Source of the DNA: Escherichia coli
GTDB lineage: Bacteria > Pseudomonadota > Gammaproteobacteria > Enterobacterales > Enterobacteriaceae
DNA length: 64,000 bases
NCBI RefSeq assembly: GCF_011045215.1
Contig: NZ_CP049201.1
Reading direction: 5' to 3' (one strand)
Made by a program: the position numbers and the translations under genes. Within the stretch, counting starts at the first letter, position 1. Each line of letters opens with the position of its first letter. Below, piece by piece: positions 851-52,867 of this stretch. The notes under the pieces are model-generated. The model ran no database searches. It saw only the letters and a list, made by a program, of their open reading frames with translations, and was not told where the DNA came from.

Positions 851-895
851 AAGTATAAAAATGCCCGGCAAGACCGGGCTTAGAAGATTGGACTA

Positions 896-1843
896 TCAGG
901 CCAGACGGTTGCCCGGAACAAACCATTCCCGACGAGAATTCAGGAGGTCTTGCGCGCTCATCGCTTTCTTACCCGCAGGTTGTAACGAGAGCAGATTCAG
1001 GATGCCATCACCAGTCGCAACCTGAATGCCTTGTTTGTTGGCTTCAAGGATCGTTCCTGGTGCAGCGTTGGTTGCCGTATCAATGACCGACGCTTTCCAG
1101 ACTTTAATCGGCTGTCCTTCAATTTCCAGCCAGCTCATTGGCCATGGATTGAAAGCACGAATGCAGCGTTCAAGCTGTGCTGCCGAAAGTGACCAGTCAA
1201 TACGCGCTTCTTCTTTACTCAACTTCTCGGCGTAAGTGACAAGAGTTTCGTCCTGAACTTCTGGTTTCGCCGTGCCGTCTGCCAATTGTTTCAACGTGGT
1301 GATAAGCCCTTGTGGGCCAAGCTCTGCCAGCTTGTCGTACAGCGTACCACTGGTATCTTCTGCAGTAATCGGGCAGGAGAGCTTATAGAGCATGTCACCG
1401 GTGTCTAAACCAACATCCATTTGCATAATGGTCACACCAGTTTCTGCATCACCCGCCCATAGTGAGCGTTGGATTGGTGCAGCACCGCGCCAGCGTGGCA
1501 GCAGTGAACCATGAACGTTGATACAGCCAAGACGCGGCATCTCCAGCACTGCTTTAGGCAGAATTAAGCCATAGGCGACGACAACCATAACATCAGCCTG
1601 TAGATCGGCGACCAGTTGCTGGTTTTCTTGTGGACGCAGGGAAACCGGTTGAAAAACGGGCAGACCTTTTTCCTCAGCCAGAACTTTAACCGGGCTGGGC
1701 ATCAGTTTTTTACCGCGTCCTGCCGGTCGGTCTGGCTGGGTGAACACGCCAACGACGTTATGACCAGAAGACAACAGCGCGTCGAGATGACGCGCTGCAA
1801 AGTCAGGTGTACCCGCAAAAATAATACGTAGTGATTCTGACAC
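896..1843 (-). CDS. fmt: Methionyl-tRNA formyltransferase
   Basis: 315-aa [27 protein letters not shown]...; length and sequence match Fmt; immediately downstream of def. Confidence 0.95.
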
Positions 1844-1857
1844 GTTAGTTCTTATCC

Positions 1858-2367
1858 TTAAGCCCGGGCTTTCAGACGATCCAGTTTTTCAACTTTCTGA
1901 CGAATACGTTGTTGTTTCAGCGGTGACAGATAATCCATAAACAGTTTGCCGACCAGGTGATCCATCTCATGCTGAATACAGATGGCTAACAGACCGTCTG
2001 CTTCCAATTCAAATGGTTTACCGTCACGGTCCAGGGCGCGAATTTTAACTTTCTCTGCGCGTGGCACTAAAGCACGTTGTTCAGGGATCGACAGGCAACC
2101 TTCTTCAATGCCTGTTTCGCCGCTTTTTTCTAAAAGCTCCGGATTGATTAACACCAGCCGTTCGTCACGGTTTTCCGAAACATCAATAACAATGATACGT
2201 TGATGGATATCAACCTGGGTTGCCGCCAGGCCAATACCTTCTTCTGCGTACATCGTCTCGAACATATCATCGACGATACGCTGAATTTCTGCATTCACTT
2301 CTTCTACCGGTTTAGCAACTTTGCGAAGCCGCTCGTCCGGAATATGTAACACTTGCAAAACTGACAT
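1858..2367 (-). CDS. def: Peptide deformylase
   Basis: 169-aa [27 protein letters not shown]... with GCLS and HEMDH metal-binding motifs. Confidence 0.95.
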
Positions 2368-2496
2368 AAATCTCCAGAGATGTGTTCAGGAGTTAGAAAG
2401 ATTATTTCTTCTATTCTAGACAAATCCCCCTCTGATTGACAGCATCACTGACCAATCGCAAAGATTGCTAAGGCTGCTTATGGCAGGGAGATAAGG

Positions 2497-3621
2497 ATGG
2501 TCGATACAGAAATTTGGCTGCGTTTAATGAGTATCAGCAGCTTGTACGGCGATGATATGGTCCGTATAGCTCACTGGCTGGCAAGACAGTCGCATATTGA
2601 TGCGGTTGTATTGCAGCAAACAGGGCTTACATTGCGGCAGGCACAACGCTTTCTTTCATTTCCGCGGAAGAGTATCGAAAGCTCACTTTGTTGGTTGGAG
2701 CAACCCAACCATCATTTAATCCCTGCGGACAGCGAATTTTATCCTCCTCAACTTCTGGCGACGACAGATTACCCCGGCGCACTGTTTGTTGAAGGAGAAC
2801 TGCACGCGCTGCATTCATTTCAGCTTGCCGTAGTGGGGAGTCGGGCGCATTCATTGTATGGCGAGCGATGGGGACGATTATTTTGCGAAACTCTGGCGAA
2901 GCATGGAGTGACAATTACGAGTGGACTGGCGCGTGGAATCGATGGTGTAGCGCATAAAGCAGCCTTACAGGTAAATGGCGTCAGCATTGCTGTATTGGGG
3001 AATGGACTTAATACCATTCATCCCCGCCGCCATGCCCGACTGGCTACCAGTTTGCTTGAACATGGTGGGGCACTTGTCTCGGAATTTCCCCTCGATGTTC
3101 CACCCCTTGCTTACAATTTCCCACGAAGAAATCGCATTATCAGTGGTCTAAGTAAAGGTGTACTGGTGGTGGAAGCGGCTTTGCGCAGTGGTTCGTTGGT
3201 GACAGCACGTTGTGCGCTTGAGCAGGGGCGTGAAGTTTTTGCCTTGCCAGGACCAATAGGGAATCCGGGAAGCGAAGGGCCTCACTGGTTAATAAAACAA
3301 GGTGCGATTCTTGTGACGGAACCGGAAGAAATTCTGGAAAACTTGCAATTTGGATTGCACTGGTTGCCAGACGCCCCTGAAAATTCATTTTATTCACCAG
3401 ATCAGGAAGACGTGGCATTGCCATTTCCTGAGCTCCTGGCTAACGTAGGAGATGAGGTAACACCTGTTGACGTCGTCGCTGAACGTGCCGGCCAACCTGT
3501 GCCAGAGGTAGTTACTCAACTACTCGAACTGGAGTTAGCAGGATGGATCGCAGCTGTACCCGGCGGCTATGTCCGATTGAGGAGGGCATGCCATGTTCGA
3601 CGTACTAATGTATTTGTTTGA
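2497..3621 (+). CDS. dprA: DNA-processing protein DprA/Smf
   Basis: 374-aa ORF, divergent from def; DprA/Smf Rossmann-like domain recognisable in translation. Confidence 0.9.
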
Positions 3622-4066
3622 AACCTATATTCACACAGAAGCTGAGTTGCGTGTGGATCAAGACAAACTTGAACAGGATCTTACCGACGCAGGATTTGAT
3701 CGAGAAGATATCTACAATGCCCTGCTTTGGCTGGAAAAGCTTGCGGATTATCAGGAAGGACTGGCAGAACCGATGCAACTGGCCTCTGATCCACTCTCCA
3801 TGCGTATTTATACCCCTGAGGAGTGTGAAAGACTGGATGCCAGCTGTCGTGGTTTTCTGCTTTTCCTTGAGCAAATTCAGGTGCTTAACCTTGAAACCCG
3901 TGAAATGGTGATAGAGCGAGTGCTCGCGCTGGATACCGCAGAGTTCGACCTGGAAGACCTGAAATGGGTAATCCTGATGGTGTTGTTCAATATTCCGGGC
4001 TGCGAAAATGCGTACCAGCAAATGGAAGAATTACTCTTTGAAGTGAATGAAGGTATGCTGCATTAA
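3593..4066 (+). CDS. smg: Smg protein (DUF494)
   Basis: 157-aa [33 protein letters not shown]...; start overlaps dprA 3' end by 29 nt. Confidence 0.9.
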
Positions 4067-4094
4067 TCATTTCTTTAATTCAGCATAAGTTGTT

Positions 4095-4637
4095 ATGGCG
4101 AAATCAGCACTGTTCACGGTGCGTAATAATGAATCCTGCCCAAAATGCGGGGCTGAACTGGTTATTCGATCCGGGAAACACGGTCCGTTTCTTGGCTGCT
4201 CACAGTATCCGGCGTGTGACTACGTCCGTCCTCTGAAATCTTCAGCGGATGGACATATTGTCAAAGTTCTGGAGGGGCAGGTTTGCCCTGCATGTGGCGC
4301 AAATCTGGTATTACGCCAGGGACGCTTTGGTATGTTTATTGGTTGCAGTAACTACCCTGAATGCGAACATACCGAACTTATCGATAAACCGGACGAAACA
4401 GCAATTACATGTCCCCAATGCCGGACGGGCCATCTGGTCCAGCGCCGCTCCCGTTATGGCAAAACATTTCACTCCTGTGATCGCTACCCGGAGTGTCAAT
4501 TTGCCATTAACTTCAAACCCATAGCTGGAGAATGCCCTGAGTGTCATTATCCGCTACTCATCGAAAAGAAAACCGCGCAGGGTGTAAAACACTTTTGTGC
4601 CAGTAAACAATGTGGAAAGCCGGTTTCGGCGGAATAA
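4095..4637 (+). CDS. yrdD: Topoisomerase-I-C-terminal-like zinc-ribbon DNA-binding protein YrdD
   Basis: 180-aa ORF with three repeated C-x2-C ... C-x4-C zinc-ribbon units ([12 protein letters not shown]; [12 protein letters not shown]; CPQCR..CDRYPEC) plus a fourth CPEC. Confidence 0.85.
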
Positions 4638-4641
4638 TAAC

Positions 4642-5214
4642 GTGAATAATAACCTGCAAGGAGACGCTATCGCAGCTGCGATAGATGTCCTCAATGAAGA
4701 ACGTGTCATCGCCTATCCAACGGAAGCCGTTTTCGGCGTCGGGTGCGATCCTGATAGCGAAACAGCAGTGATGCGACTGTTGGAGTTAAAACAGCGTCCG
4801 GTTGATAAGGGGCTGATTTTAATCGCGGCAAATTACGAGCAGCTTAAACCCTATATTGATGACACCATGCTGACTGATGCGCAGCGTGAAACCATTTTTT
4901 CCCGCTGGCCAGGTCCTGTCACCTTTGTCTTTCCCGCGCCTGCGACAACACCGCGCTGGTTGACGGGCCGCTTTGATTCGCTTGCTGTACGAGTCACCGA
5001 CCATCCGTTGGTGGTTGCTTTGTGCCAAGCTTATGGTAAACCGCTGGTTTCTACCAGTGCCAACTTGAGTGGATTGCCACCTTGTCGAACAGTAGACGAA
5101 GTTCGCGCACAATTTGGCGCGGCGTTCCCGGTTGTGCCTGGTGAAACGGGGGGGCGTTTAAATCCTTCAGAAATCCGCGATGCCCTGACGGGTGAACTGT
5201 TTCGACAGGGGTAA
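4642..5214 (+). CDS. tsaC: L-threonylcarbamoyladenylate synthase TsaC (YrdC/RimN)
   Basis: GTG start at 4642 gives the 190-aa protein [38 protein letters not shown]... (YrdC/Sua5 fold); the ORF-track entry 4597..5214 is an upstream in-frame extension. Confidence 0.85.
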
Positions 5215-5218
5215 CATA

Positions 5219-6037
5219 ATGGAAACCTATGCTGTTTTTGGTAATCCGATAGCCCACAGCAAATCGCCATTCATTCATCAGCAATTTGCTCAGCAACTGA
5301 ATATTGAACATCCCTATGGGCGCGTGTTGGCACCCATCAATGATTTCATCAACACACTGAACGCTTTCTTTCGTGCTGGTGGTAAAGGTGCGAATGTGAC
5401 GGTGCCTTTTAAAGAAGAGGCTTTTGCCAGAGCGGATGAGCTTACTGAACGGGCAGCGTTGGCTGGTGCTGTTAATACCCTCATGCGGTTAGAAGATGGA
5501 CGCCTGCTGGGTGACAATACCGATGGTGTAGGCTTGTTAAGCGATCTGGAACGTCTGTCTTTTATCCGCCCTGGTTTACGTATTCTGCTTATCGGCGCTG
5601 GTGGAGCATCTCGCGGCGTACTACTGCCACTCCTTTCCCTGGACTGTGCGGTGACAATCACTAATCGGACGGTATCCCGCGCGGAAGAGTTGGCTAAATT
5701 GTTTGCGCACACTGGCAGTATTCAGGCGTTGGGTATGGACGAACTGGAAGGTCATGAGTTTGATCTCATTATTAATGCAACATCCAGTGGCATCAGTGGT
5801 GATATTCCGGCGATCCCGTCATCGCTCATTCATCCAGGCATTTATTGCTATGACATGTTCTATCAGAAAGGAAAAACTCCTTTTCTGGCATGGTGTGAGC
5901 AGCGAGGCTCAAAGCGTAATGCTGATGGTTTAGGAATGCTGGTGGCACAGGCGGCTCATGCCTTCCTTCTTTGGCATGGCGTTCTGCCTGATGTAGAACC
6001 GGTCATCAAACTATTGCAACAGGAGTTGTCAGCGTGA
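5219..6037 (+). CDS. aroE: Shikimate dehydrogenase
   Basis: Internal ATG at 5219 gives 272 aa [28 protein letters not shown]...; NADP-binding GAGGASRG motif present. Confidence 0.9.
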
Positions 6038-6291
6038 ATCAGGCCATCCAGTTTCCGGACAGGGAAGAGTGGGACGAGAATAAAAAATGTGTATGTTTTC
6101 CCGCTCTCGTGAATGGCATGCAACTGACATGTGCGATCTCTGGCGATAGCCTGGCGTATCGCTTTACTGGAGATACGCCAGAGCAGTGGTTAGCGAGTTT
6201 TCGTCAGCATCGCTGGGACCTGGAAGAAGAAGCGGAAAACTTAATTCAGGAACAAAGTGAAGATGATCAAGGTTGGGTCTGGTTACCCTGA
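6034..6291 (+). CDS. yrdB: DUF1488 family protein YrdB
   Basis: 85-aa [35 protein letters not shown]...; start overlaps aroE stop. Confidence 0.8.
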
Positions 6292-6821
6292 TCCAGGTAT
6301 TCGTCTTTCCATTTCACGTAATTATTCGCGGAGTAACGTAACCCAGCCTTCTCTTCATCACTTAACGGGCGGATCTGTTTGACGGGACTACCGAGATACA
6401 GATATCCGCTCTCCAGCCGTTTATTTTGTGGGACCAGACTACCCGCACCAATCATCACATCATCTTCTACTATTGCGCCATCAAGTAAAATTGAGCCCAT
6501 CCCAACCAAAACTCGATTGCCAATGGTGCAGCCGTGGAGCATCACCTTGTGACCAACAGTGACATCTTCGCCAATGGTTAATGGGTTGCCATCTGGGTTG
6601 TACGAGGATTTATGAGTGACATGCAACATACTGCCATCCTGGATATTGGTGCGTGCTCCGATCTGTACATAATGTACATCTCCACGAATCACAACGAGCG
6701 GCCAGATCCCCACATCATCAGCCAGACGAACGTCACCAATCACGACACTGCTATCGTCGATCATTACGCGCTGACCGATTTGTGGAAAAAGATCGCGGTA
6801 TGGGCGTAAAACATCAGACAT
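6267..6821 (-). CDS. yrdA: Gamma-carbonic-anhydrase-like hexapeptide-repeat protein YrdA
   Basis: ATG at 6821 gives 184 aa MSDVLRPYRDLFPQIGQRVMIDDSSVVIGDV... (left-handed beta-helix repeats); the 293-aa track ORF is an N-terminal over-extension running into the rrn promoter region. Confidence 0.85.
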   Translation of the reverse strand: MSDVLRPYRDLFPQIGQRVMIDDSSVVIGDVRLADDVGIWPLVVIRGDVHYVQIGARTNIQDGSMLHVTHKSSYNPDGNPLTIGEDVTVGHKVMLHGCTIGNRVLVGMGSILLDGAIVEDDVMIGAGSLVPQNKRLESGYLYLGSPVKQIRPLSDEEKAGLRYSANNYVKWKDEYLDQGNQTQP

Positions 6822-6929
6822 ACTTACCTCAGCAATAAATGATTTACTAATGACTTTGGGGGCATTATTGGCCTTGTGCAAGTCTTTTAGTATGCAAAAA
6901 AGCACCGTTTTGTGTGCGATTGCAGCAAA

Positions 6930-7001
6930 AAGGGTGAAAAAACAACAAACAGAAAAAAAGATCAAAAAAATACTTGTGCAAAAAATTGGGATCCCTATAA
7001 T
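6930..7001 (+). promoter_or_regulatory. rrnD P1 promoter with A-rich UP element
   Basis: TTGTGC (6974-6979), 16-bp spacer, TATAAT (6996-7001), GC-rich discriminator GCGCC; preceded by an A-rich tract 6935-6973 typical of rrn P1 UP elements. Confidence 0.75.
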
Positions 7002-7081
7002 GCGCCTCCGTTGAGACGACAACGTGAAACACTTCACAGGATGGTCGGAACAACGAAGAGAAAAAACCCTGAAATTCAGGG

Positions 7082-7109
7082 TTGACTCTGAAAGAGGAAA
7101 GCGTAATAT
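7082..7109 (+). promoter_or_regulatory. rrnD P2 promoter
   Basis: TTGACT (7082-7087) and TAATAT (7104-7109) with 16-bp spacer, about 100 bp downstream of P1 as in E. coli rrn operons. Confidence 0.7.
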
Positions 7110-7149
7110 ACGCCACCTCGCGACAGTGAGCTGAAAGCCGCGTCGCAAC

Positions 7150-7162
7150 TGCTCTTTAACAA
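7150..7162 (+). promoter_or_regulatory. rrn leader boxA antitermination element
   Basis: TGCTCTTTAACAA matches the boxA consensus between P2 and mature 16S. Confidence 0.75.
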
Positions 7163-7293
7163 TTTATCAGACAATCTGTGTGGGCACTCGAAGATACGGA
7201 TTCTTAACGTCGCAAGACGAAAAATGAATACCAAGTCTCAAGAGTGAACACGTAATTCATTACGAAGTTTAATTCTTTGAGCATCAAACTTTT

Positions 7294-8835
<1,542 letters not shown>

Positions 8836-8903
8836 CCTTAAAGAAGCGTTCTTTGTAGTGCTCACACAGATTGTCTGATGAAAATGAGCAGTAAAACCTC
8901 TAC

Positions 8904-8980
<77 letters not shown>

Positions 8981-9022
8981 AATTTGCACGGCAAATTTGA
9001 AGAGGTTTTAACTACATGTTAT

Positions 9023-9098
9023 GGGGCTATAGCTCAGCTGGGAGAGCGCCTGCTTTGCACGCAGGAGGTCTGCGGTTCGATCCCGCATAGCTCCACCA
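9023..9098 (+). tRNA. alaU: tRNA-Ala (TGC)
   Basis: GGGGCTATAGCTCAGCTGGGAGAGCGCCTGCTTTGCACGCAGGAGGTCTGCGGTTCGATCCCGCATAGCTCCACCA; 76 nt with G3:U70. Confidence 0.97.
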
Positions 9099-9161
9099 TC
9101 TCTGTAGTGATTAAATAAAAAATACTTCAGAGTGTACCTGCAAAGGTTCACTGCGAAGTTT

Positions 9162-9174
9162 TGCTCTTTAAAAA
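9162..9174 (+). promoter_or_regulatory. 16S-23S spacer boxA element
   Basis: TGCTCTTTAAAAA in the spacer downstream of tRNA-Ala, at the usual position of the second boxA. Confidence 0.6.
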
Positions 9175-9272
9175 TCTGGATCAAGCTGAAAATTGAAACA
9201 CTGAACAACGAAAGTTGTTCGTGAGTCTCTCAAATTTTCGCAACTCTGAAGTGAAACATCTTCGGGTTGTGA

Positions 9273-12175
<2,903 letters not shown>

Positions 12176-12268
12176 ACAACGCCGAAGCTGTTTTGGCGGA
12201 TTGAGAGAAGATTTTCAGCCTGATACAGATTAAATCAGAACGCAGAAGCGGTCTGATAAAACAGAATT

Positions 12269-12388
12269 TGCCTGGCGGCCGTAGCGCGGTGGTCCCACCT
12301 GACCCCATGCCGAACTCAGAAGTGAAACGCCGTAGCGCCGATGGTAGTGTGGGGTCTCCCCATGCGAGAGTAGGGAACTGCCAGGCAT
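12269..12388 (+). rRNA. rrfD: 5S ribosomal RNA (first copy)
   Basis: TGCCTGGCGGCCGTAGCGCGGTGGTCCCACCTGACCCCATGCCGAACTCAGAAGTGAAACG...GCCAGGCAT; 120 nt. Confidence 0.97.
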
Positions 12389-12400
12389 CAAATTTAGCGT

Positions 12401-12476
12401 GCTGATATGGCTCAGTTGGTAGAGCGCACCCTTGGTAAGGGTGAGGTCCCCAGTTCGACTCTGGGTATCAGCACCA
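12401..12476 (+). tRNA. thrV: tRNA-Thr (GGT)
   Basis: GCTGATATGGCTCAGTTGGTAGAGCGCACCCTTGGTAAGGGTGAGGTCCCCAGTTCGACTCTGGGTATCAGCACCA; 76 nt. Confidence 0.95.
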
Positions 12477-12513
12477 CTTTTTAGGTTAAAGTTCGGCAGA
12501 TTAGAAAAGAATT

Positions 12514-12633
12514 TGTCTGGCGGCAGTAGCGCGGTGGTCCCACCTGACCCCATGCCGAACTCAGAAGTGAAACGCCGTAGCGCCGATGGTAGTGTGGGGC
12601 CTCCCCATGCGAGAGTAGGGAACTGCCAGACAT
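12514..12633 (+). rRNA. rrfF: 5S ribosomal RNA (second copy)
   Basis: TGTCTGGCGGCAGTAGCGCGGTGGTCCCACC...GCCAGACAT; 120 nt; differs from rrfD at a few positions including compensatory changes in the terminal helix. Confidence 0.95.
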
Positions 12634-12644
12634 CAAATCAAGCG

Positions 12645-12672
12645 AAAGGCCATCCGAAAGGATGGCCTTTTT
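12645..12672 (+). terminator. rrnD rho-independent terminator
   Basis: AAAGGCCATCC-GAAA-GGATGGCCTTTTT: perfect 11-bp stem followed by a T-run. Confidence 0.85.
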
Positions 12673-12693
12673 GCTTTTCGAACTAACATTCAA

Positions 12694-12909
12694 TTAATGG
12701 ATTACCTGCGATAAAAATGCCCTCGTACGCTCTGATTTAGGATGCGCAAAAAATTCATCAGGTGCAGCTTGCTCCACTATTTCCCCACGATCCATAAAAA
12801 TTACCCGGTCAGCGACGGTTCGTGCAAACCCCATCTCATGTGTTACACACAACATTGTCATACCCGACTGCGCCAGCCCAATCATCGTATCCAGCACCTC
12901 TTTCACCAT
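12694..12909 (-). pseudogene. yhdZ: yhdZ 3' fragment (ABC ATPase residues 182-252) separated from its 5' part by an IS insertion
   Basis: Translates MVKEVLDTMIGLAQSGMTMLCVTHEMGFARTVADRVIFMDRGEIVEQAAPDEFFAHPKSERTRAFLSQVIH, containing the ABC H-loop (CVTHE) but no Walker A/B; contiguous in frame with the N-terminal fragment once the IS is removed. Confidence 0.9.
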
Positions 12910-12910
12910 C
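12905..12910. repeat. Target-site duplication (ACCATC), right-hand copy relative to yhdZ
   Basis: ACCATC immediately abuts the IS end at 12911; identical hexamer at 14865-14870. Confidence 0.8.
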
Positions 12911-15412
<2,502 letters not shown>

Positions 15413-15419
15413 AGTGTCC

Positions 15420-16523
15420 TCAATGCGGTGTACGCCCGGTAGTAAAACGTTTTTCCAGATGTTGGCTATAACGTGACATGCTGAAACAGAAGATCCAGTA
15501 GATCAGCGCGGCGAAAACATACCCTTCCGTCGACATACCCAACCAGGCGGGATCAACGGTTGCCTGCTGAACGCTACTGAAAAGATCGAACAACCCGATG
15601 ATGATCACCAGGCTGGTATCTTTGAAGAGTGCGATGATGGTATTTACCAGCCCAGGAATTACCAGCTTCAACGCCTGTGGCAGAATAACCAGCCCCTGAG
15701 TTTTCCAGTAACCCAATGCCAGTGACTCTGCCGCTTCATATTGCCCTTTAGGCAGCGCCTGTAATCCGCCTCGCACGACTTCCGCAACATATGCTGACTG
15801 AAACAGGATCACGCCAACCAGCGCGCGGATCAGTTTGTCGATACTGGTGCCTTCTGCCATAAACAACGGCAGCATGACCGAAGACATAAACAATACGGTA
15901 ATCAGCGGTACGCCGCGCCAGAACTCGATAAAAATGACCGATAAGATACGCACAATCGGCATATGGGAGCGGCGACCTAACGCCAGTAAGATCCCCCACG
16001 GTAGCGCCCCCGCAATCCCAACGGATGCAATAATTAAAGTTAGCGTCAGCCCGCCCCATTGCCGGGTTTCAACCCGCTCAAGAGCAAAAAAACCGCCATA
16101 CATCAGCCACCAGACAATCAGTGGGTAAATCACCGCCCAGGCCGCAATATAGCGACCGCGATGCGGGAGTATTTTCCAGAACATTGGTGCGATCGACACA
16201 AGCCCAATCAGTAATGCGAGGTTAATTCGCCAGCGTTGGTCGTGTGGGTAAAGCCCATACATAAACTGACCAAATCGTTCGTGGATGAAGACCCAACAGG
16301 CACCAGCTTTTGTGCAGTCGGCACGCGTTGAGCCAACCCAGTTAGCCTGCAAAAATGCCCAGTTCAGCAACGGTGGGATCAGTTCCCACATCAACCATAT
16401 GCAGCCAATAGTCAGCAGGCTATTGCTCCAGCTGGAGAACAGATTTTTTCGCACCCACACCATCGCGCGGTTTGAGTTATGGCTCGCCGGGCGCGGGGGA
16501 TGAGACAGCAATACTTTTGTCAT
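15420..16523 (-). CDS. yhdY: Amino-acid ABC transporter permease YhdY
   Basis: 367-aa membrane protein from the second Met of the 368-aa track ORF (tandem Met, start choice +/-3 nt); ABC permease EAA-like loop present. Confidence 0.88.
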   Translation of the reverse strand: MTKVLLSHPPRPASHNSNRAMVWVRKNLFSSWSNSLLTIGCIWLMWELIPPLLNWAFLQANWVGSTRADCTKAGACWVFIHERFGQFMYGLYPHDQRWRINLALLIGLVSIAPMFWKILPHRGRYIAAWAVIYPLIVWWLMYGGFFALERVETRQWGGLTLTLIIASVGIAGALPWGILLALGRRSHMPIVRILSVIFIEFWRGVPLITVLFMSSVMLPLFMAEGTSIDKLIRALVGVILFQSAYVAEVVRGGLQALPKGQYEAAESLALGYWKTQGLVILPQALKLVIPGLVNTIIALFKDTSLVIIIGLFDLFSSVQQATVDPAWLGMSTEGYVFAALIYWIFCFSMSRYSQHLEKRFTTGRTPH

Positions 16524-16532
16524 CATGACTCC

Positions 16533-17714
16533 TTAGCGTTCAACGATCGCGATGCGGCGGTTATAGATATTCATCAGCAGCGAGATAGTCAGGCTGATAA
16601 TCAGATAGACCGACATGGTCATGGCTATCGTCTCGATGGCTTGCCCCGTCTGATTGAGCACGGTGCCGGCAAACAGCGAAACCATATCGGGATAGCCAAT
16701 AGCGGCGGCAAGAGAGGAGTTTTTGACGATGTTGAGATACTGGCTGGTTAACGGTGGAATAATCACCCGCAATGCCTGGGGAATAATGACCTGGCGTAGC
16801 GTAACCGGGTTGGGTAATCCCAGTGACCGAGCCGCTTCATGTTGACCATAAGGCACTGCCTGGATCCCAGCGCGGATAATCTCGGCGATAAATGCAGATG
16901 TATAAACCGAAAGTGCCAGCGTTAAGGCTGCCAGTTCAGGAATTAAAACCATCCCGCCGCGGAAGTTAAAGCCTCGTAGGGCTGGGACATCCCAGTGTAG
17001 TGCTGCGCCAAAAAGCCATTGCGCCAGTAAAGGCAAACCAATGATCAACACTGCGGCGATCGGCCAGGTGCGGCGCAGTTGTCCGGTCTTTATCTGGTAT
17101 GTTTTATTAAAGCGGAATAGCCCAACAGAAAGGACTATAGCCATAACAACAGCCAGGATAAACGCAATAAATCCGTCTCCCAGCTGCGGTGACGGAATAT
17201 AAAGCCCACGATTGCTCAAAAAGGCCAGATCAAACGCGCTCACAGTCTGGCGTGGTCCGGGCAAATTGCGCAACACGGCAAAGTACCAGAAGAAGATTTG
17301 CAGCAGCGGGGGAATATTACGGAAGATCTCAATATAAATTGTGGAAAGCTTTCGTAGCAGCCAGTTATCCGAAAGTCTCGCCAGACCGATAAAGAAGCCC
17401 AAAACAGAAGCGAACACAATACACAATGCAGAAACCAGTAGCGTATTGAGTAAGCCGACAATAAAAACGCGTCCGTAGGTGTCGCCCTGCTGGTAATCTA
17501 TCAAATGCTGGACAATACCGAAGCCGGCGCCGCGATCCAGAAAGGCAAAACCTGAAGTAATGCCACGATTATTGAGATTCGTTACAGTGTTGTGAAATAA
17601 CCAACCAACAATGCCGACAACAGCAACAACGGCAAGGATCTGGAATAACCAGGCACGAACCGTAGGGTTGGCAAAGGAGAGTGAGCCTTTAACGGTTGAG
17701 CGGCGATGAGACAT
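16533..17714 (-). CDS. yhdX: Amino-acid ABC transporter permease YhdX
   Basis: ORF 16533..17732; start placed at internal ATG (MSHRRSTVKGSLSF...) giving 393 aa; polytopic membrane protein. Confidence 0.85.
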   Translation of the reverse strand: MSHRRSTVKGSLSFANPTVRAWLFQILAVVAVVGIVGWLFHNTVTNLNNRGITSGFAFLDRGAGFGIVQHLIDYQQGDTYGRVFIVGLLNTLLVSALCIVFASVLGFFIGLARLSDNWLLRKLSTIYIEIFRNIPPLLQIFFWYFAVLRNLPGPRQTVSAFDLAFLSNRGLYIPSPQLGDGFIAFILAVVMAIVLSVGLFRFNKTYQIKTGQLRRTWPIAAVLIIGLPLLAQWLFGAALHWDVPALRGFNFRGGMVLIPELAALTLALSVYTSAFIAEIIRAGIQAVPYGQHEAARSLGLPNPVTLRQVIIPQALRVIIPPLTSQYLNIVKNSSLAAAIGYPDMVSLFAGTVLNQTGQAIETIAMTMSVYLIISLTISLLMNIYNRRIAIVER

Positions 17715-17781
17715 AGAAACCTCGGAAAGCATAACGCTGAAGAGAGCGCCGCCGTAGCGACGCTCGTTACCTCACACCGAC

Positions 17782-18807
17782 TTAACGCACGGGCGGCGCG
17801 TACTGAATACCGCCGTTATTCCAGAGATTATTTTGCCCACGTTTAATTTTCAGCGGGCTTTCTGAACCTACGTTACGCTCAAAAATTTCCGAGTAGTTAC
17901 CCACCTGTTTGATGATGTTATAGGCCCATTTATTATCCAACTTCAGATCCTTGCCGTAATCGCCTTCTTTACCCAGCAGATGTGCCATATCAGGCGTTGC
18001 TGGATTAGCCGCTTTTTCATCGACGTTCTGGGAATTGATGCCCATCTCTTCAGCATTTAGCATGGCGAAAAGCGTCCAGCGTACAATCGAGAACCATTCA
18101 TCATCGCCACGACGAACTACCGGCCCAAGCGGTTCTTTAGAGATAACCTCCGGTAAGACAATCCATTCAGCCGGGTTGCTTAATTTGATGCGCAGGGCAT
18201 ACAGTTGGGATTGATCCGAAGCCAGCGTATCGCAGCGACCAGATTCCAGTGCCTTCGCTGATTCGTCAGAGCGATCGAAAGTCACTGGTGTGTACTTCAT
18301 ATTGTTTGCCTTGAAATAGTCGGCGACGTTGAGTTCGGTATCAGTACCCGCCTGAATACAGACGGTAGCGCCATCCAGTTCTTTCGCGCTTTTTAGCCCC
18401 GCTTTATCGTGCGTCAGGAAGCCTATGCCGTCGTAATAAGTGACGCCAGTAAATGCCATTCCCATCCCGGCATCGCGAGATGAAGTCCAGGTCGTATTAC
18501 GGGAGAGCAAATCCACCTCCCCTGACTGTAAAGCGGTGAAGCGTTCTTTTGCAGTGAGCGGGGTATATTTCACTTTCGTGTCGTCACCAAATACAGCAGC
18601 GGCAACACCACGACAAATATCAACATCAATACCTGAAAATTTACCGTCAGCATCGGCATAAGAGAACCCAGGTAATCCATCACTGATCCCGCATTGCACA
18701 AAACCTTTTTTCTGTACGGCATCAAGCGTCGCGCCAGCATGCGCCTGATTTGCAACGGCAAGCAGCACGCTGGCGGCAGCCAGTGTGGCTATCATCATCT
18801 TTTTCAT
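17782..18807 (-). CDS. yhdW: Periplasmic amino-acid-binding protein YhdW of the ABC transporter
   Basis: 341-aa ORF with N-terminal signal peptide MKKMMIATLAAASVLLAVANQAHA; solute-binding protein family 3. Confidence 0.9.
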   Translation of the reverse strand: MKKMMIATLAAASVLLAVANQAHAGATLDAVQKKGFVQCGISDGLPGFSYADADGKFSGIDVDICRGVAAAVFGDDTKVKYTPLTAKERFTALQSGEVDLLSRNTTWTSSRDAGMGMAFTGVTYYDGIGFLTHDKAGLKSAKELDGATVCIQAGTDTELNVADYFKANNMKYTPVTFDRSDESAKALESGRCDTLASDQSQLYALRIKLSNPAEWIVLPEVISKEPLGPVVRRGDDEWFSIVRWTLFAMLNAEEMGINSQNVDEKAANPATPDMAHLLGKEGDYGKDLKLDNKWAYNIIKQVGNYSEIFERNVGSESPLKIKRGQNNLWNNGGIQYAPPVR

Positions 18808-18887
18808 AATGCTTCCTGTGAGGCGAAAATTATCGTTATAGGACGTTTGGGAAACGTCTTTTACCTGTCTGTGGCCATCCTCTTATA

Positions 18888-18903
18888 AGCAAAAGTAGTG
18901 CCA
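18888..18903 (-). promoter_or_regulatory. Sigma54 (RpoN) -24/-12 promoter upstream of yhdW
   Basis: Reverse strand reads TGGCAC-TACTT-TTGCT, an exact fit to the TGGCAC-N5-TTGCW consensus, about 80 bp upstream of the yhdW ATG and oriented toward it. Confidence 0.7.
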
Positions 18904-18992
18904 GCTTTTGCGCACGATTTCGCGTCGCAATAAGCTGAGTGTAGACAGGAAATAATAAAAACAGCGCCCCGCAATGGTGCGAAAATGAAACA

Positions 18993-19011
18993 TGCGCCAC
19001 ATTTTGGCGCA
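18993..19011. promoter_or_regulatory. Palindrome TGCGCCA-N5-TGGCGCA, candidate enhancer-binding-protein site upstream of the sigma54 promoter
   Basis: Perfect 7-bp inverted repeat about 100 bp upstream of the sigma54 promoter; resembles NtrC-type half sites (TGCACC/GGTGCA) but with atypical spacing. Confidence 0.4.
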
Positions 19012-19203
19012 AAATATTTACGCGTGTTTTACTAAGCAGAATAATGATTGTTAGCGTGAGTATATTTCTGGTGGGAAGTGTGAAAATTAAATTGATGCGT
19101 TATTTCGAAAGCGGCGAAATAACGCGATATAACATGCTAAATCAGCAGGGAATTATCCAGCAGAATATAGCAATATTTTATCTTATGGAGAGATACTGTA
19201 TCG

Positions 19204-19237
19204 TTAAACAGAGCGCGGAAATCCGCGCCCTGTTCAG
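19204..19237 (-). terminator. Putative terminator downstream of yhdV
   Basis: GC-rich hairpin GCGCGG-AAAT-CCGCGC directly after the yhdV stop, followed by a weak T-rich tract on the reverse strand. Confidence 0.45.
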
Positions 19238-19459
19238 TTATTTCGACAGAGCGATGATCCCCATCGTCAGGCCAGCAACAGCTGCTGCCCCGCCAGCAAT
19301 AGCCCCAGCCGTTTCCCAGTTATCCTGAGTCGTGCCTTTCATACAGGTATTGGTGTGAACCAGACGACCCTGATCGTCATAAACCGGAACGCAGGGCGAA
19401 TCATGAGCACAGCCCGCCAGCAATGCGGTGAGCAATGCCACAGGAATTAATCTTTTCAT
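19238..19459 (-). CDS. yhdV: Small outer-membrane lipoprotein YhdV
   Basis: 73 aa, MKRLIPVALLTALLAGC lipobox signal, Gly/Ala-rich C-terminus. Confidence 0.85.
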   Translation of the reverse strand: MKRLIPVALLTALLAGCAHDSPCVPVYDDQGRLVHTNTCMKGTTQDNWETAGAIAGGAAAVAGLTMGIIALSK

Positions 19460-19677
19460 GGTGTTACCTCAGTAATAAACGCTAACGCTTAATAAGTTAA
19501 CTCTCTTATTAACGTGCTGAATGCCATTTTATCACCGGAGGTTATAAATCTTGCGGAATGAATAATGACAAATTATGTGAATTGTAAAAATAGTGAAGGG
19601 AGCGGGAACTATAGAAAGTTTTTAAAGAGTGAGAAGAAGAATATCTTATTAATTTTTATGGGTTTCACTGAGAATAA

Positions 19678-19700
19678 TAAAGGCGCCCGAAAGCGCCTTT
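19678..19700 (-). terminator. Rho-independent terminator downstream of acrF
   Basis: AAAGGCGC-CCGAA-AGCGCCTTT hairpin followed by a T-rich run on the reverse strand, 12 nt past the acrF stop. Confidence 0.7.
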
Positions 19701-19711
19701 ATGTTTCTGAT

Positions 19712-22700
19712 TTATCCTTTAAAGCAACGGCGGATCACCACAAAGAACACCGGTACGAAGAAGATTGCCAGCAACGTTGCAGAGACCATTCCTCCCATTA
19801 CCCCGATACCCACAGCGTTCTGCGCGCCACTGCCGGCACCGTTACTGATAGCCAGCGGTAATACGCCGAGAATAAAGGCGAGAGAGGTCATCAGGATAGG
19901 ACGCAGACGCATACGTACTGCCATTAGTGTCGCTTCAACAACATCTTTACCCTCTTTCTCCATGAGATCTTTAGCGAACTCAACAATCAAAATAGCGTTT
20001 TTGGCCGACAAGCCAATTGTCGTTAGCAAGCCCACCATAAAGTAGACGTCATTTTTTTGATTAAAGAGTGTCGCCGCCAGCAGCACGCCGACAATCCCTA
20101 ACGGCACGACCAACATAACCGAGACAGGAATTGACCAGCTTTCATAGAGTGCAGCAAGGCACAGGAAAACAACCACAAAGGAAATTGCTACCAGAGCGGG
20201 AGCCTGGTTTCCCGATAAGCGTTCCTGATACGACATACCCGTCCAGTCATAACCAATGCCCGCAGGTAATTTTGACGCAAGGTTTTCCATCAACGCCATG
20301 GCATCGCCGGAACTGGTTCCTGGCGCGGCTTCCCCCTGAATCTCCATTGACGGCAGACCGTTGTAGCGTTCCAGTCGCGGAGAGCCATACACCCAATGTG
20401 AAGTGGTAAAGGCAGAGAATGGCACCATTTCGCCGTTGGCGCTGCGGACATAAAGTTTATCGACATCTTCTGGCAGCATACGGAATTTGGCATCCGCCTG
20501 AACATACACCTTTTTCACGCGACCACGGTCGATGAAGTCGTTAACGTAAGTCCCACCCAGCGCCGTTGAAATGGTCTGATTGATGTCAGAAAGTGAAACA
20601 CCTAATGCCTGCGCCTTTTCCTGGTCAACTTCCAGTTTAAACTGCGCGGTGTCTTCCAGGCCATTAGGACGCACGCTGACTAAGCTGGCAGGATGTTGCG
20701 CCGCCATACCAAGCAACTGGTTACGGGCCTGGGTTAGGGCATCGTGACCCAGCCCAGCCTGATCAATTAACTCAAAGTCGAAACCCGTTGCCGTGCCCAG
20801 TTCAACAATGGCTGGCATGTTGAATGGAATGACAAAACCGTCGCGGATCTTGCCCAATTCCATTTTGGCACGATGGATTACCGCTTCCGCACTGTTTTCG
20901 TCACCATTACGCTCTTCCCACGGTTTCAGACTGACGAAGGCCATACCGGCGTTTTGTGCCTGGCCGCTGAAGCTAAAGCCGTTAACCGTAAAGACACTTT
21001 CAACGTTCGCTTTCTCGTTCTTCAGATAGTAATCCGTCACTTGATCCAACACTTTTTGCGTCCGCTCTTGCGTCGCGCCAGCGGGTAACTGAATCATGGT
21101 CAGAAAGACACCCTGATCCTCTTCAGGTAAGAAGGAAGACGGAAGACGTAAAAACAACACCACCATTCCTGCAACAATCAGCGCATAGATCAGTAAATAT
21201 CGTCCTGTGGAACCGAGGATTTTGCCGACGCTGTTGGTGTAGTGGTTAACGCTATGATCGAAGGTGGTATTAAACCAGCCGAAGAAACCGCCCTTATTTT
21301 CGTGATGCTCAGCAGAGACGGGTTTAAGCAGCGTTGCACATAACGCAGGGGTAAGAATCAATGCCACCAGAACAGAAAGCGCCATTGCCGAAACGATGGT
21401 GATAGAGAACTGGCGATAAATTGCCCCAGTAGAACCGCCGAAGAATGCCATCGGAATAAATACCGCTGACAGCACCATCGCGATACCCACCAGTGCGCCC
21501 TGGATTTGCGACATTGATTTTTCCGTCGCTTCTTTTGGCGGGAGCTTATCCTCCATCATCACGCGCTCGACGTTCTCCACCACCACTATCGCATCATCGA
21601 CGAGCAGCCCGATGGCAAGCACCATCCCGAACATCGTTAGTGTGTTGATGGAGTAACCAAAAGCGGCGAGGATGGCAAACGTCCCTAACAACACCACGGG
21701 TACCGCAATGGTGGGGATCAGCGTTGCTCGCATATTCTGCAAGAACAGATACATCACCAGGAACACCAGCATAATAGCTTCGAACAGTGTTTTTACCACT
21801 TCGTGAATAGAAAGCTGGACGAATGGCGTGGTGTCATAAGGGTAGAGAACCTTCATTCCCTGCGGGAAGAATGGCTGTAATTCCGCCAGTTTTGCCTTAA
21901 TGGCTTTCGCGGTATCGAGAGCATTCGCGCCGGTTGCCAGCTTAATACCCAGGCCCGCCGCCGGTTTTCCGTTGATGCGAGCGATAACGTTATAGTTTTC
22001 ACCGCCAAGTTCAACCCGTGCGACATCTTTCAGGCGTACCACCGAGCCGTCACTGTTTACGCGCAGGGTCACTTTGCCGAATTCTTCCGGATTTTTTAAC
22101 CGCGTCTGAGCAATAATCGAGGCATTCAACTGTTGCCCTGGTAACGCTGGCGTTCCGCCCAACTGTCCGGCAGCGATCTGATCGTTCTGTACCTTCAACT
22201 GGTTAATCACATCAACCGGTGTCAGTTTATATTTGTTTAGCAGATCGGCGTCCAGCCAGATACGCATCGCATACTGTGCGCCGAAAAGCTGTACGTCACC
22301 GACGCCATTCAGACGGCTAAGCGTATCTTTAACGTTAGAGGCCACATAGTCCGAGATATCGTCCTGTGTGGTGTCTGGGTTATCAGAGACAAAGCCCGCC
22401 ACCATCAAATAGCTGCTACTGGACTTTTCAACACTGATCCCCTGCTGCTGAACCTCCTGCGGCAGCAACGGCGTGGCGAGCTGGAGTTTGTTCTGCACCT
22501 GCACTTGCGCGATATCAGGATCGGTCCCGGACTGGAAGGTAAGGGTAATTGTCACGCTACCGGCGGAATCGCTGGTGGAGGACATATACATCAGGTTATC
22601 GATACCGTTCATATTCTGTTCGATAACCTGCGTCACCGTATCCTGCACGGTCTGCGCATCAGCGCCCGGATAGTTTGCTGAAACAGAAACCGCTGGCGGT

Positions 22701-22816
22701 GCAATGGTTGGATACTGAGCGACGGGCAATTGTAGGATCGCCAGTGCGCCAGCCATCATCAGAATAATGGCCAGCACCCATGCAAATATCGGTCGTCGAA
22801 TAAAAAAGTTTGCCAT
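19712..22816 (-). CDS. acrF: RND multidrug efflux pump inner-membrane component AcrF
   Basis: 1034-aa [48 protein letters not shown]...; 12-TM RND architecture. Confidence 0.95.
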
Positions 22817-22827
22817 GTCAGATTACC

Positions 22828-23985
22828 TTACTTCGATGCAGTATCTGCGGGGGTATCGGTAGTGGCTTTAACCTGCTCTCCCGGACGCGCTTTTTGCAGG
22901 CCGCTGACAATGACTTGATCGCCAGATTTCAGACCTTCGCTAATCAACCATTTATCGCCAATCGCCTGACTGGCAACGACAGGGCGCGCTTCAACCTGAC
23001 TTTTATCGTTAACAATCAGCACGGTTGCATCACCACGCGGTGTGCGGCTAACGCCTTGTTGCGGGATAAGAATGGCGTCAGGTTGGACGCCTTCATCAAT
23101 CCGTGCACGCACAAACATACCCGGCAAAAGCGTATGTTGCGGGTTAGGGAAGACAGCACGTAGGGTTATGGAGCCGGTGCTTTCATCAACGGTCACATCG
23201 GAGAATTGCAGCGTACCTTTCAGGGGATAGGTTTGACCGTTTTCCATGACCAACTCTACGTTGCTGGTGGCGTTTTCCTTATGCAAATTTCCTTGCTCTA
23301 CGGATTGCTTCAGCCTCATAAAATCGTTGCTGGATTGGGTCACATCAACGTAGATAGGATCGAGCTGCTGGACAGTTGCCAGTTCAGTCGTTTGCCCATT
23401 AGTGACAAGAGCGCCTTCGGTCACAGTTGATTTGCCGATACGTCCGCTAATTGGCGCAGTCACTTTGGTATAAGCAAGATTGATGCGAGCGCTTTCGACT
23501 GTGGCTTTTGCGGCAATCACGGCGGCATCGGCCTGGCGAGCATCAGCAATGGCCTGGTCGTACTCCTGCTGGCTGATGTATTTCGTACCCACGAGCGGAA
23601 CGTAACGTTTTACCGTCAAATGCGCGATGGCGGCGGCGGCTTCACTTTTCGCCAGTTCGCCTTTCGCGCTGTCATAATTTGCCTGATAGGTCGCGGGATC
23701 GATCTGGTACAGGGACTGGCCTGCTTGCACATCGCTGCCTTCAGTGAAATTGCGATTCAGTACGATCCCGCTAACCTGTGGGCGAACTTCGGCTATACGA
23801 TAAGCATTGGTGCGGCCTGGTAATTCAGTCTTAACTTCTAACGGGGCCGTTTTTACAATATGAACGGTAACCTGCGGTTCACCGACGTGAGCTTTCTCTT
23901 CTCCCTTATCGTTACAATCGGCGATTAAAGCCGCGGAGATCAGAATAAAGGAGGGCAGGAGGAAAAACCTGGCATGTTTCGTCAT
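22828..23985 (-). CDS. acrE: RND efflux membrane-fusion (periplasmic adaptor) protein AcrE
   Basis: 385-aa ORF with lipoprotein signal (MTKHARFFLLPSFILISAALIADC); upstream of and co-oriented with acrF. Confidence 0.95.
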   Translation of the reverse strand: MTKHARFFLLPSFILISAALIADCNDKGEEKAHVGEPQVTVHIVKTAPLEVKTELPGRTNAYRIAEVRPQVSGIVLNRNFTEGSDVQAGQSLYQIDPATYQANYDSAKGELAKSEAAAAIAHLTVKRYVPLVGTKYISQQEYDQAIADARQADAAVIAAKATVESARINLAYTKVTAPISGRIGKSTVTEGALVTNGQTTELATVQQLDPIYVDVTQSSNDFMRLKQSVEQGNLHKENATSNVELVMENGQTYPLKGTLQFSDVTVDESTGSITLRAVFPNPQHTLLPGMFVRARIDEGVQPDAILIPQQGVSRTPRGDATVLIVNDKSQVEARPVVASQAIGDKWLISEGLKSGDQVIVSGLQKARPGEQVKATTDTPADTASK

Positions 23986-24383
23986 TACTATTCCTCAAAA
24001 AACCAAAAGCGCGTTATTTACCCAAAAAGGCAACGCGTTAACTCGCAGAAAGAAAAATACAGTTCGCTATCCTACAAATTATCATTCGTCGATGTAAGGA
24101 ATAGTTATGAATACAGGCGTCTCAAGGCACATAAACACAAAAAAAGATTAATATTCTACTGTTTTATTTTGACGCGGGTTGAAAGAGGCAGAATTAAAAC
24201 CTCGTAAATTGAAATATATATTGATGTAGTGAATGTATCTTAGGTAAATAATATATATTATTTATTTAACGATTTATAGCAACTCAATATTAGCCTCTCG
24301 TATAAATACACATTAGGTGATAGATTAACCTTCGCTATTTTCTCACTCTGTGTCGAATATATTTATTTCCTGAATAATTAATC

Positions 24384-25046
24384 ATGGCAAAAAGAACCAA
24401 AGCCGAAGCTCTGAAGACCCGGCAAGAACTGATTGAAACTGCCATCGCCCAGTTTGCGCAGCATGGCGTAAGCAAGACGACGCTCAACGACATTGCCGAC
24501 GCCGCTAACGTTACGCGTGGCGCTATCTACTGGCACTTCGAAAACAAGACTCAACTGTTTAATGAGATGTGGTTGCAACAGCCTTCATTGCGGGAGTTAA
24601 TCCAGGATCACTTGACGGCTGGGTTAGAGCATGACCCGTTTCAACAATTGCGTGAAAAATTGATTGTCGGCTTGCAATATATTGCCAAAATTCCCCGCCA
24701 GCAGGCGTTGCTGAAAATCTTATATCACAAATGTGAATTTAATGATGAGATGCTGGCCGAGGGAGTGATACGCGAAAAGATGGGCTTTAATCCGCAGACT
24801 CTCCGTGAAGTATTGCAGGCGTGTCAGCAAAAAGGTTGTGTAGCAAATAACCTCGATTTAGATGTTGTGATAATTATTATTGATGGTGCCTTCAGCGGAA
24901 TTGTTCAAAACTGGTTAATGAATATGGCGGGTTATGATCTTTATAAACAAGCCCCCGCTCTTGTCGATAACGTATTAAGAATGTTCATGCCAGATGAAAA
25001 CATAACGAAATTAATTCATCAAACGAATGAATTAAGTGTCATGTAA
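24384..25046 (+). CDS. acrS: TetR-family transcriptional repressor AcrS (EnvR)
   Basis: 220-aa ORF divergent from acrE; N-terminal TetR HTH (SKTTLNDIADAANVTRGAIYWHFENK). Confidence 0.92.
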   Translation: MAKRTKAEALKTRQELIETAIAQFAQHGVSKTTLNDIADAANVTRGAIYWHFENKTQLFNEMWLQQPSLRELIQDHLTAGLEHDPFQQLREKLIVGLQYIAKIPRQQALLKILYHKCEFNDEMLAEGVIREKMGFNPQTLREVLQACQQKGCVANNLDLDVVIIIIDGAFSGIVQNWLMNMAGYDLYKQAPALVDNVLRMFMPDENITKLIHQTNELSVM

Positions 25047-25054
25047 ATTCACAT

Positions 25055-25228
25055 TCAGTCCTGAAAATTCAGTTCGTCACAGTTAACCAGTTTTAGTGGA
25101 TTAACTGAGTTCATATTGCGGCATTTGTCTGTTTCTGTTGCCAGCAGTTCAATCCACTGCATCAGTAAAGTATCAAACAGAAAAACGAAGACAGCGAAAA
25201 CGACGAGCCACCAATACTTGCGAATCAT
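25055..25228 (-). CDS. yhdU: Small membrane protein YhdU (DUF2556)
   Basis: Internal ATG gives 57 aa MIRKYWWLVVFAVFVFLFDTLLMQWIELLATE...; single TM helix. Confidence 0.7.
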   Translation of the reverse strand: MIRKYWWLVVFAVFVFLFDTLLMQWIELLATETDKCRNMNSVNPLKLVNCDELNFQD

Positions 25229-25311
25229 TACCTGAGCCTGTGCATGTTTAACCAAGTCTGGCAGGAAATATACACGAAATGAATAATCTGAAAACCAGGC
25301 TTACACATCCT

Positions 25312-26196
25312 TTACTTTGTAATGAGATCGGGGTCAACTTCGCTTAACCGGCTTCGTTTTGACAGGTTGCCGGTCTTTCTTTTTTTCACTTTCGCCAGTT
25401 CTTCCGCAGAGTAATGCGACGCGACATCCAGCCGTCGAAGCCCCATTTTGATGTACTCGCTGTTGATCTCAATACCAATGAATTTTCGTCCGCTGGCGAT
25501 GGCTACGGCACCGGTAGTAAAGCTACCAGCAAACGGGTCGAGAACGATATCGCCTGGGTTGGAAGAGGCGAGAATAATGCGTTTCAGTAAGGCTTCCGGT
25601 TTTTGCGTCGGGTGGTTTTCATATTCATCCATCAAATAACGCACGCGAGGAAAATCCCAGACGTTACCCGGTACTTTTTGATGATTGTAAGGCTGTGGAG
25701 GATTTTTGCGATAATCGATCAACGCGCGCTGCGATCCGGTTTTGGCTTCTACCAGAATAGCATCACCGTTGAATGTGTAGTTCTTTGCGTCTTTCACCAT
25801 CATCAGGATGGGTTCGTACATGGAGCCGTAGTGTTTTTTCGCCTGCACTCCAGAACTGTCATAGGACCAGACGATCCGACTTTTGATGGTAAAAAGCTTG
25901 CGGCACTGGAGATCGATAAAGGGCATGTTTTCCGTACTGTTCATGATGTACATGCTGCCCTGCTTTTTCAGAACGCGGTGGCACTCTGCAATCACTTCAA
26001 ACAGCCAGTCGATAAACAGATCTTCTTTCCAGGCTTCGATCAGACCATCAAAATTTTTACCGATGTTATACGGTGGGTCGGCAAAGATCAGATCGACGCT
26101 TTCAGTAGGTAGCTTTTTAAGTTCGGCAAGGGCATCACCGTGAATAATGGTCTTAGCTTCATTACCAAACCGGGTCGGTTCACATCCTGTTCTCAT
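25312..26196 (-). CDS. yhdJ: Solitary DNA adenine (N6) methyltransferase YhdJ
   Basis: 294 aa from ATG at 26196 (MRTGCEPTRFGNEAKTIIHGDALAELKKLP...); DPPY catalytic motif (IFADPPYNIG) and AdoMet-binding region. Confidence 0.9.
   Translation of the reverse strand: MRTGCEPTRFGNEAKTIIHGDALAELKKLPTESVDLIFADPPYNIGKNFDGLIEAWKEDLFIDWLFEVIAECHRVLKKQGSMYIMNSTENMPFIDLQCRKLFTIKSRIVWSYDSSGVQAKKHYGSMYEPILMMVKDAKNYTFNGDAILVEAKTGSQRALIDYRKNPPQPYNHQKVPGNVWDFPRVRYLMDEYENHPTQKPEALLKRIILASSNPGDIVLDPFAGSFTTGAVAIASGRKFIGIEINSEYIKMGLRRLDVASHYSAEELAKVKKRKTGNLSKRSRLSEVDPDLITK

Positions 26197-52393: not shown

Positions 52394-52867
<474 letters not shown>

Follow-up and report, generated by a model that had tools for sequence, protein, structure and literature searches.

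The acrS-acrEF locus of the window

Positions 19712-25046 of a 64,000-nucleotide stretch of Escherichia coli DNA (contig NZ_CP049201.1, assembly GCF_011045215.1; hereafter the window, meaning the whole stretch that was analysed) carry acrE and acrF, which encode the adaptor and the permease of an RND efflux pump. The divergent regulatory gene acrS (envR) lies on the other side of an AT-rich control region. A first-pass annotation had described the locus as intact but probably silent, and as a plausible future target of an insertion sequence (IS). According to the list of open reading frames (ORFs), the layout is as follows.

19712-22816, minus strand: acrF, RND permease; intact ORF of 1034 amino acids (3105 nt), model TIGR00915
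22828-23985, minus strand: acrE, RND periplasmic adaptor; full-length ORF of 385 amino acids, model TIGR01730
23986-24383, no strand: acrS-acrE divergent control region; 398 bp, 30.9% GC, uninterrupted
24384-25046, plus strand: acrS (envR), TetR-family repressor; intact ORF of 220 amino acids, model NF007430

These identities and coordinates, already proposed in the first-pass annotation, agree exactly with the ORF list, the NCBIfam models and the RefSeq names. The names come from RefSeq annotation of near-identical DNA, which has 99-99.9% identity to annotated E. coli chromosomes. The three ORFs are indeed intact: all are full length, have the lengths of their K-12 MG1655 counterparts and contain no internal stop. 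AcrS matches the acrEF/envCD regulator equivalog model NF007430 over its whole length (residues 1-220 of 220; score 432.9, cut-off 274), and orthologous acrS genes have precomputed TetR_N hits. AcrE passes the RND_mfp model TIGR01730 (287.3 bits, cut-off 94.9) and shares 98% identity with the representative of the E. coli AcrE cluster. AcrF passes the RND permease model TIGR00915 over residues 1-1033 (1866.7 bits, cut-off 940.35).

The locus closely resembles envR-acrEF of K-12 MG1655 (b3264-b3266), with which it shares gene order, orientation, protein lengths (220, 385 and 1034 amino acids), the 398-bp spacer and both published promoter strings. At the DNA level, the two differ at 6 positions in acrS, 1 in the spacer, 7 in acrE and 27 in acrF. 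In AcrS, this amounts to three conservative changes (E75D, Q150K and M163I), and in AcrF to four changes (G148D, F240L, L770V and G958D). AcrE differs by a single residue, which is discussed below. There is also a likeness to the AcrAB-TolC system (acrR-acrAB), where a paralogous RND permease and lipoprotein adaptor are associated with a divergent TetR repressor and where the proton-relay residues are conserved.

The AcrF permease looks functional, judging from its sequence. Residues 1-1032 align end to end with AcrB structures, and alignment with AcrB, AcrD and MdtF shows that the proton-relay residues D407, D408, K940, R971 and T978 (AcrB numbering) are all kept. The four positions changed with respect to K-12 are all variable among these paralogues; L240 and V770 correspond to the paralogue consensus. 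Among sequences on record, G958D (window position 19944) is private to this genome, the exact AcrF protein being QIF11852.1. Codon 958 is located in the cytoplasmic loop between transmembrane helices TM10 and TM11, and the change is probably harmless because AcrD has an aspartate at the equivalent position.

The setting of the locus, rrnD-yhdWXYZ-acrEF-acrS-yhdU-yhdJ-fis, is conserved. When 5,426 complete E. coli genomes were searched with a 6.4-kb query, the region was present in 5,425, and in 5,198 genomes a single place accounted for 80% or more of the query. Strain PapM-32-1 gives the best match (99.9%).

An AT-rich control region with the K-12 configuration

The spacer between acrS and acrE is as AT-rich as the first-pass annotation had claimed. 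Its GC content, 30.9% overall and 28.2% over 24100-24383, compares with 50.7% for the window, and the coding regions have a normal GC content. Out of the whole 64 kb, it is the 398-bp stretch with the lowest GC (minimum at 23984), and 0.02% of 398-bp windows are as AT-rich. For this window, such a composition lies well outside what chance would give.

The absence of any insertion in the spacer is also verified, since the sequence is collinear with that of K-12, has the same length and differs from it by one substitution, at position 24119 (G, where K-12 has A). Two promoters have been listed for K-12 in a genomic SELEX (systematic evolution of ligands by exponential enrichment) study.

24257-24287, minus strand: acrEF promoter listed for K-12 (PMC3946193), TTGAGT-19-AATAAT; string found in the window and in K-12
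24194-24222, plus strand: acrS (envR) promoter listed for K-12 (PMC3946193), TTAAAA-17-TATATT; also a match in an independent consensus scan

Both strings are unchanged in the window, and the single-nucleotide polymorphism (SNP) at 24119 lies outside both. In the same genomic SELEX study, the K-12 envR/acrE spacer was marked as H-NS-bound (PMC3946193). Those parts of PMC4462101 and PMC6599122 that cite Nishino & Yamaguchi 2004 state that inactivation of hns raises acrEF expression in E. coli and Salmonella. H-NS repression of acrEF is likewise stated in PMC9780535, which cites Nishino 2009, and according to PMC9780535 H-NS silences envR itself in Salmonella. In K-12, basal expression of acrEF is very low (PMC4462101, PMC9330008).

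These data lead to a three-step mechanism, the first two steps of which are drawn from the literature on K-12 and Salmonella and the third of which is inferred here. In the divergent AT-rich spacer of about 400 bp, acrS and acrEF would be driven by weak sigma-70 promoters; H-NS would bind this spacer and thereby keep both transcription units nearly silent in laboratory conditions. AcrEF-TolC would back up AcrAB-TolC once freed by the loss of hns or by the arrival of IS1, IS2 or IS10 upstream of acrE. The inserted IS would presumably act by providing a promoter (a fusion or an outward one), by breaking the H-NS filament, or by both. The operon of this strain would be unreleased, because the spacer is that of K-12 except for one base outside the listed promoters.

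Overall, the region is very probably the usual acrS (envR)/acrEF locus of the Escherichia coli core genome, wild-type in layout and uninterrupted. Several points weigh against this view. The H-NS high-affinity 10-mer is not enriched in the spacer, where a single 8/10 match was found, a density near the window average. For the 24-bp AcrR/EnvR operator, the spacer offers at most a 14/24 match, a level also reached in other parts of the window. Moreover, silence cannot be observed from DNA. Finally, the single residue change in AcrE, G23D, means that the locus is not strictly wild-type.

The AT-richness had been read in the first-pass annotation as the signature of H-NS-silenced DNA. What stands is the composition itself, together with the H-NS repression published for K-12 and Salmonella. 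However, AT-richness by itself is not a specific H-NS signature, and it is all that the sequence adds. Because the H-NS motif stays at background density in the spacer, the case for silencing rests on the published K-12 and Salmonella data. As a separate matter, an operator shared with AcrR of the AcrAB-TolC system was considered for this spacer and rejected, its best match being at the level of the window background.

IS insertions and losses in other E. coli genomes

That an IS inserted upstream of acrE classically activates the operon is well supported by the literature: IS1 and IS2 in E. coli, and IS1 and IS10 in Salmonella, activate acrEF when located upstream (PMC4462101, PMC6599122, PMC9330008). 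Such alleles were selected in the laboratory in acrB mutants and have the same target region, whereas the spacer of the window has no insertion.

To place this spacer among natural isolates, a 498-bp query (the spacer with 50 bp on either side) was compared with the 5,426 complete E. coli genomes. It was found in 5,231, contiguous in 5,211 and split in about 20 (0.4%); about 195 genomes lack it. Overall, the spacer or the 5' end of acrE is missing in about 195-199 of these genomes. The IS alleles were listed with a chimeric query made of 2-kb flanks on each side plus IS1 and IS2, which covers IS1 and IS2 cases and identified at least 5 of the approximately 20 split spacers. They are given below together with related alleles, spacer positions being window equivalents.

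24346-24355: IS1 in the spacer, strains 2017.11.01CC and PSS-10
24116-24122: IS1 in the spacer, strain AR436 (CDC AR-bank) and probably also AR_0374
24040-24048: IS1 in the spacer, strain XJ55, whose acrF has an internal stop
Inside acrE: IS1, strains GD33, 13KWH46, E41 and WP7-S17-ESBL-04
Inside acrE: IS2, strains AHM8C212RI and AHM8C160RI
Inside acrE: IS903B, strain ECSD228
yhdV-acrF-acrE and the spacer: IS1B-linked deletion, strain AR_0085, in which IS1B adjoins a frameshifted acrS

Among the matches listed, natural isolates therefore carry IS1 in the spacer at at least three distinct sites. They comprise human isolates, from Viet Nam and from Ecuador, a bovine one from China, whose acrF has the internal stop, and AR436. 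IS activity at the locus is real but rare, and it disrupts or deletes acrE at least as often as it places an IS upstream.

An aspartate at the -1 position of the AcrE lipobox

The sole amino acid difference between the AcrE protein of the window and that of K-12 falls in the signal peptide.

23917-23919, minus strand: acrE codon 23, GAT (Asp) in the window, GGT (Gly) in K-12

Residue 23 is the -1 position of the lipobox. Hence, IAGC becomes IADC, and MTKHARFFLLPSFILISAALIAGC becomes ...LIADC. The lipobox consensus is [LVI][ASTVI][GAS]C (PMC4728403, PMC8689077), and L-I-A-D-C does not conform to it, the aspartate at -1 lying outside [GAS]. By comparison, the lipobox of AcrA, in AcrAB-TolC, reads LTGC. 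The change is rare. A 57-bp query centred on the G23D base had no exact match among the 5,227 complete E. coli genomes that have the segment, and the closest relative, PapM-32-1, has a glycine at this position. Of 120 AcrE orthologue cluster representatives, drawn from Escherichia, Shigella, Salmonella and Citrobacter, 118 have a glycine at -1, 2 have a serine and none has an aspartate. An aspartate at -1 would be expected to hinder processing by Lgt and LspA. Since G23D is outside the consensus and absent from all 5,227 genomes and from 120 of 120 representatives, maturation of the adaptor appears uncertain. In turn, the capacity that the pump would have on activation is uncertain, given this rare AcrE form.

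Even so, NCBI, ENA and Logan assemblies contain the exact G23D protein, which was read on at least 23 contigs. A sequencing error was considered and rejected, because these contigs are independent. They fall into four or more acrE haplotypes that differ by synonymous changes, one of them resembling K-12 save for this base. With so very many E. coli assemblies sampled, the recurrence of a single transition is not remarkable in itself. Several assemblies with the same AcrE protein also have a 7-bp deletion in acrF (window-equivalent 21142-21148), which frameshifts and splits the gene, so that it is called as 569 + 461 amino acids or is left uncalled (L006, L009 and L010 included). This suggests that the operon is already dead in the clone that shares G23D and the deletion.

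These observations bear on the description of the locus as a complete AcrAB paralogue. The three ORFs are full length, as that description requires, but function is unproven and the lipobox of AcrE is noncanonical. The strongest competitor of the wild-type reading is an early functional decay, in which G23D would be a loss- or reduced-function allele tolerated by a silent operon, completeness being only apparent. We consider this possible but distinctly less probable than an ordinary locus. In its favour, the aspartate breaks the published lipobox consensus and, in several assemblies, the same AcrE protein accompanies the frameshifting acrF deletion. The locus is also dispensable. In E. coli sequence type 11 (ST11)/O157:H7, acrF is a pseudogene owing to a 45-bp insertion with stop codons (PMC10202319), and to the genomes that have lost the spacer or the 5' end of acrE must be added those with IS1, IS2 or IS903B inside acrE. 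The window thus resembles ST11/O157:H7 in belonging to a locus that decays in some lineages, and relatives of its acrE allele carry the 7-bp acrF deletion; however, its own acrF, 3105 nt long, has neither insertion, deletion nor stop.

On the other hand, all three ORFs of the window are intact, and the persistence of the allele on several haplotypes is compatible with neutrality. An unprocessed, signal-anchored AcrE might also work, as lipid-deficient or lipid-free variants of AcrA and MexA reportedly remain functional.

Because the change sits on at least four synonymous haplotypes, it may alternatively have been selected recurrently, as a means of removing AcrE from the lipoprotein pathway, which we regard as a long shot. 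If this were true, either a costly or leaky pump would have been inactivated or the adaptor would have become signal-anchored, with an altered function.

Separately, many E. coli assemblies have an AcrE variant of 355-362 amino acids, 92-94% identical, with a normal N-terminus and about 26 residues shorter. It suggests a recurrent allele with either an internal deletion or a truncated C-terminus.

Expression state and origin of the control region

Returning to the ordinary, H-NS-silenced locus, two further alternatives concern the spacer. It is improbable that the operon of this strain escapes silencing, whether through the SNP at 24119 or through strain-specific trans regulators. The one spacer base that differs from K-12 is all that speaks for such a release, and it falls neither in the two published promoters nor in the conserved promoter-like element described below. 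In addition, spacers of 99-100% identity occur in many E. coli, and low expression is the published norm.

Homologous spacers were found in Salmonella, in Citrobacter koseri and in a C. freundii-like contig, with lengths of 406-413 bp and 32-35% GC. Because the same AT-rich spacer occurs in Salmonella and Citrobacter, it is ancestral and not a recent import. In a four-genus alignment, conservation is concentrated in the 180 bp proximal to acrE (23986-24165), where 60% of columns are invariant, against 24-31% elsewhere in the spacer. This block contains a further element.

24069-24097, minus strand: putative promoter-like element TTACAT-17-TAGGAT in the conserved block; both hexamers invariant in the four-genus alignment

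The element matches the consensus at 8 of 12 positions and is distinct from the promoter listed by genomic SELEX. As a candidate promoter, it is a lead only.

The last alternative, in which the AT-rich spacer would mark recently acquired foreign DNA subject to xenogeneic silencing, appeals to the low GC typical of H-NS-targeted imports (PMC9330008) but is very improbable and already contradicted by the presence of the locus in sister genera, as Salmonella and Citrobacter have it with an equally AT-rich spacer and conserved acrE-proximal block, some 96% of complete E. coli genomes have it in the same setting, and the coding regions have a normal GC content.

IS100, the only IS of the window

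The first-pass annotation had further noted an active IS nearby and had taken the control region as its plausible future target. The element in question is an IS100.

12911-14864, minus strand: IS100 (IS21 family), 1954 bp; istA at 13756-14778, istB at 12977-13759

Its istA (340 amino acids, transposase) and istB (260 amino acids, ATPase helper) ORFs are intact and consecutive, and the element is 99.5-99.8% identical to annotated IS100 copies. Its ends are TGTCA...TGACA (TGT...ACA) and it is flanked by a 6-bp direct repeat, ACCATC, as expected for the IS21 family. It constitutes the one insertion of the window relative to PapM-32-1 and breaks the 3' third of yhdZ, the ATPase gene of the YhdWXYZ amino-acid ATP-binding cassette (ABC) transporter. 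At this yhdZ site, an element occurs in none of the complete E. coli genomes, the best coverage of window positions 1-19500 being 90%. These features are consistent with a recent event, and IS100 may be active, to judge from its intact istA and istB and its unique insertion site.

The distance between IS100 and the acrEF promoter is about 9.4 kb. Neither IS1 nor IS2 was found within the 64-kb window, of which IS100 is the only IS. Members of the IS21 family can form fusion promoters, and the elements listed at acrEF are IS1, IS2 and IS10 (PMC9330008). In the literature found, no insertion of IS100 or of another IS21-family member is reported at acrEF. Thus, an intact IS100 is present as claimed, but its activity is deduced and its type is unreported at acrEF. 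The idea of a future target is speculative for this type of IS.

Other features of the window

The gene order of the window is trkA/rsmB/fmt/def, rrnD, yhdWXYZ, yhdV, acrEF, acrS, yhdU, yhdJ, fis, mreBCD, yhdP and aaeB/tldD/degQ. Compared with K-12 MG1655, yhdZ is broken by IS100, whereas yhdW (17782-18807; periplasmic binding protein, 341 amino acids) is an intact ORF in the window and a pseudogene in K-12. One more feature lies next to acrF.

19677-19702, 10 bp past the acrF stop: terminator-like, G+C-rich palindromic hairpin, a match to consensus only

An Rfam search over 18800-25400 gave no match above the gathering score; the only sub-threshold matches were Bcj14, in acrE, and STnc40, at the end of acrF. 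Bcj14 is a Burkholderia small RNA family, matched at 23699-23886 on the minus strand with 39.8 bits for a gathering score of 59, which probably reflects adaptor-gene sequence in the family seed. The fold of the putative acrE leader was not significant (z-score of -1.53). Besides the spacer, the window has just two AT-rich troughs, at 51841-52444 and 62551-63158, with minimum 398-bp GC contents of 32.4% and 31.9%, respectively. They are located in the aaeB/tldD/degQ part and may be further H-NS-type intergenic regions.

Implications

The locus, its silencing by H-NS and its activation by IS insertion are all already known, and the interpretation given in the first-pass annotation essentially restated published biology. 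Since silencing and IS activation belong to the textbook account of efflux-mediated resistance, the locus of this strain adds little beyond bookkeeping in that respect. A split spacer is seen in only about 0.4% of sequenced genomes. Because splitting is this rare, and because IS are at least as often destructive here, a nearby mobile element is a weak predictor of future acrEF activation. The AcrE allele carries a further message: a gene called intact from its ORF only can hide a possibly disabling change in the signal peptide of the adaptor.

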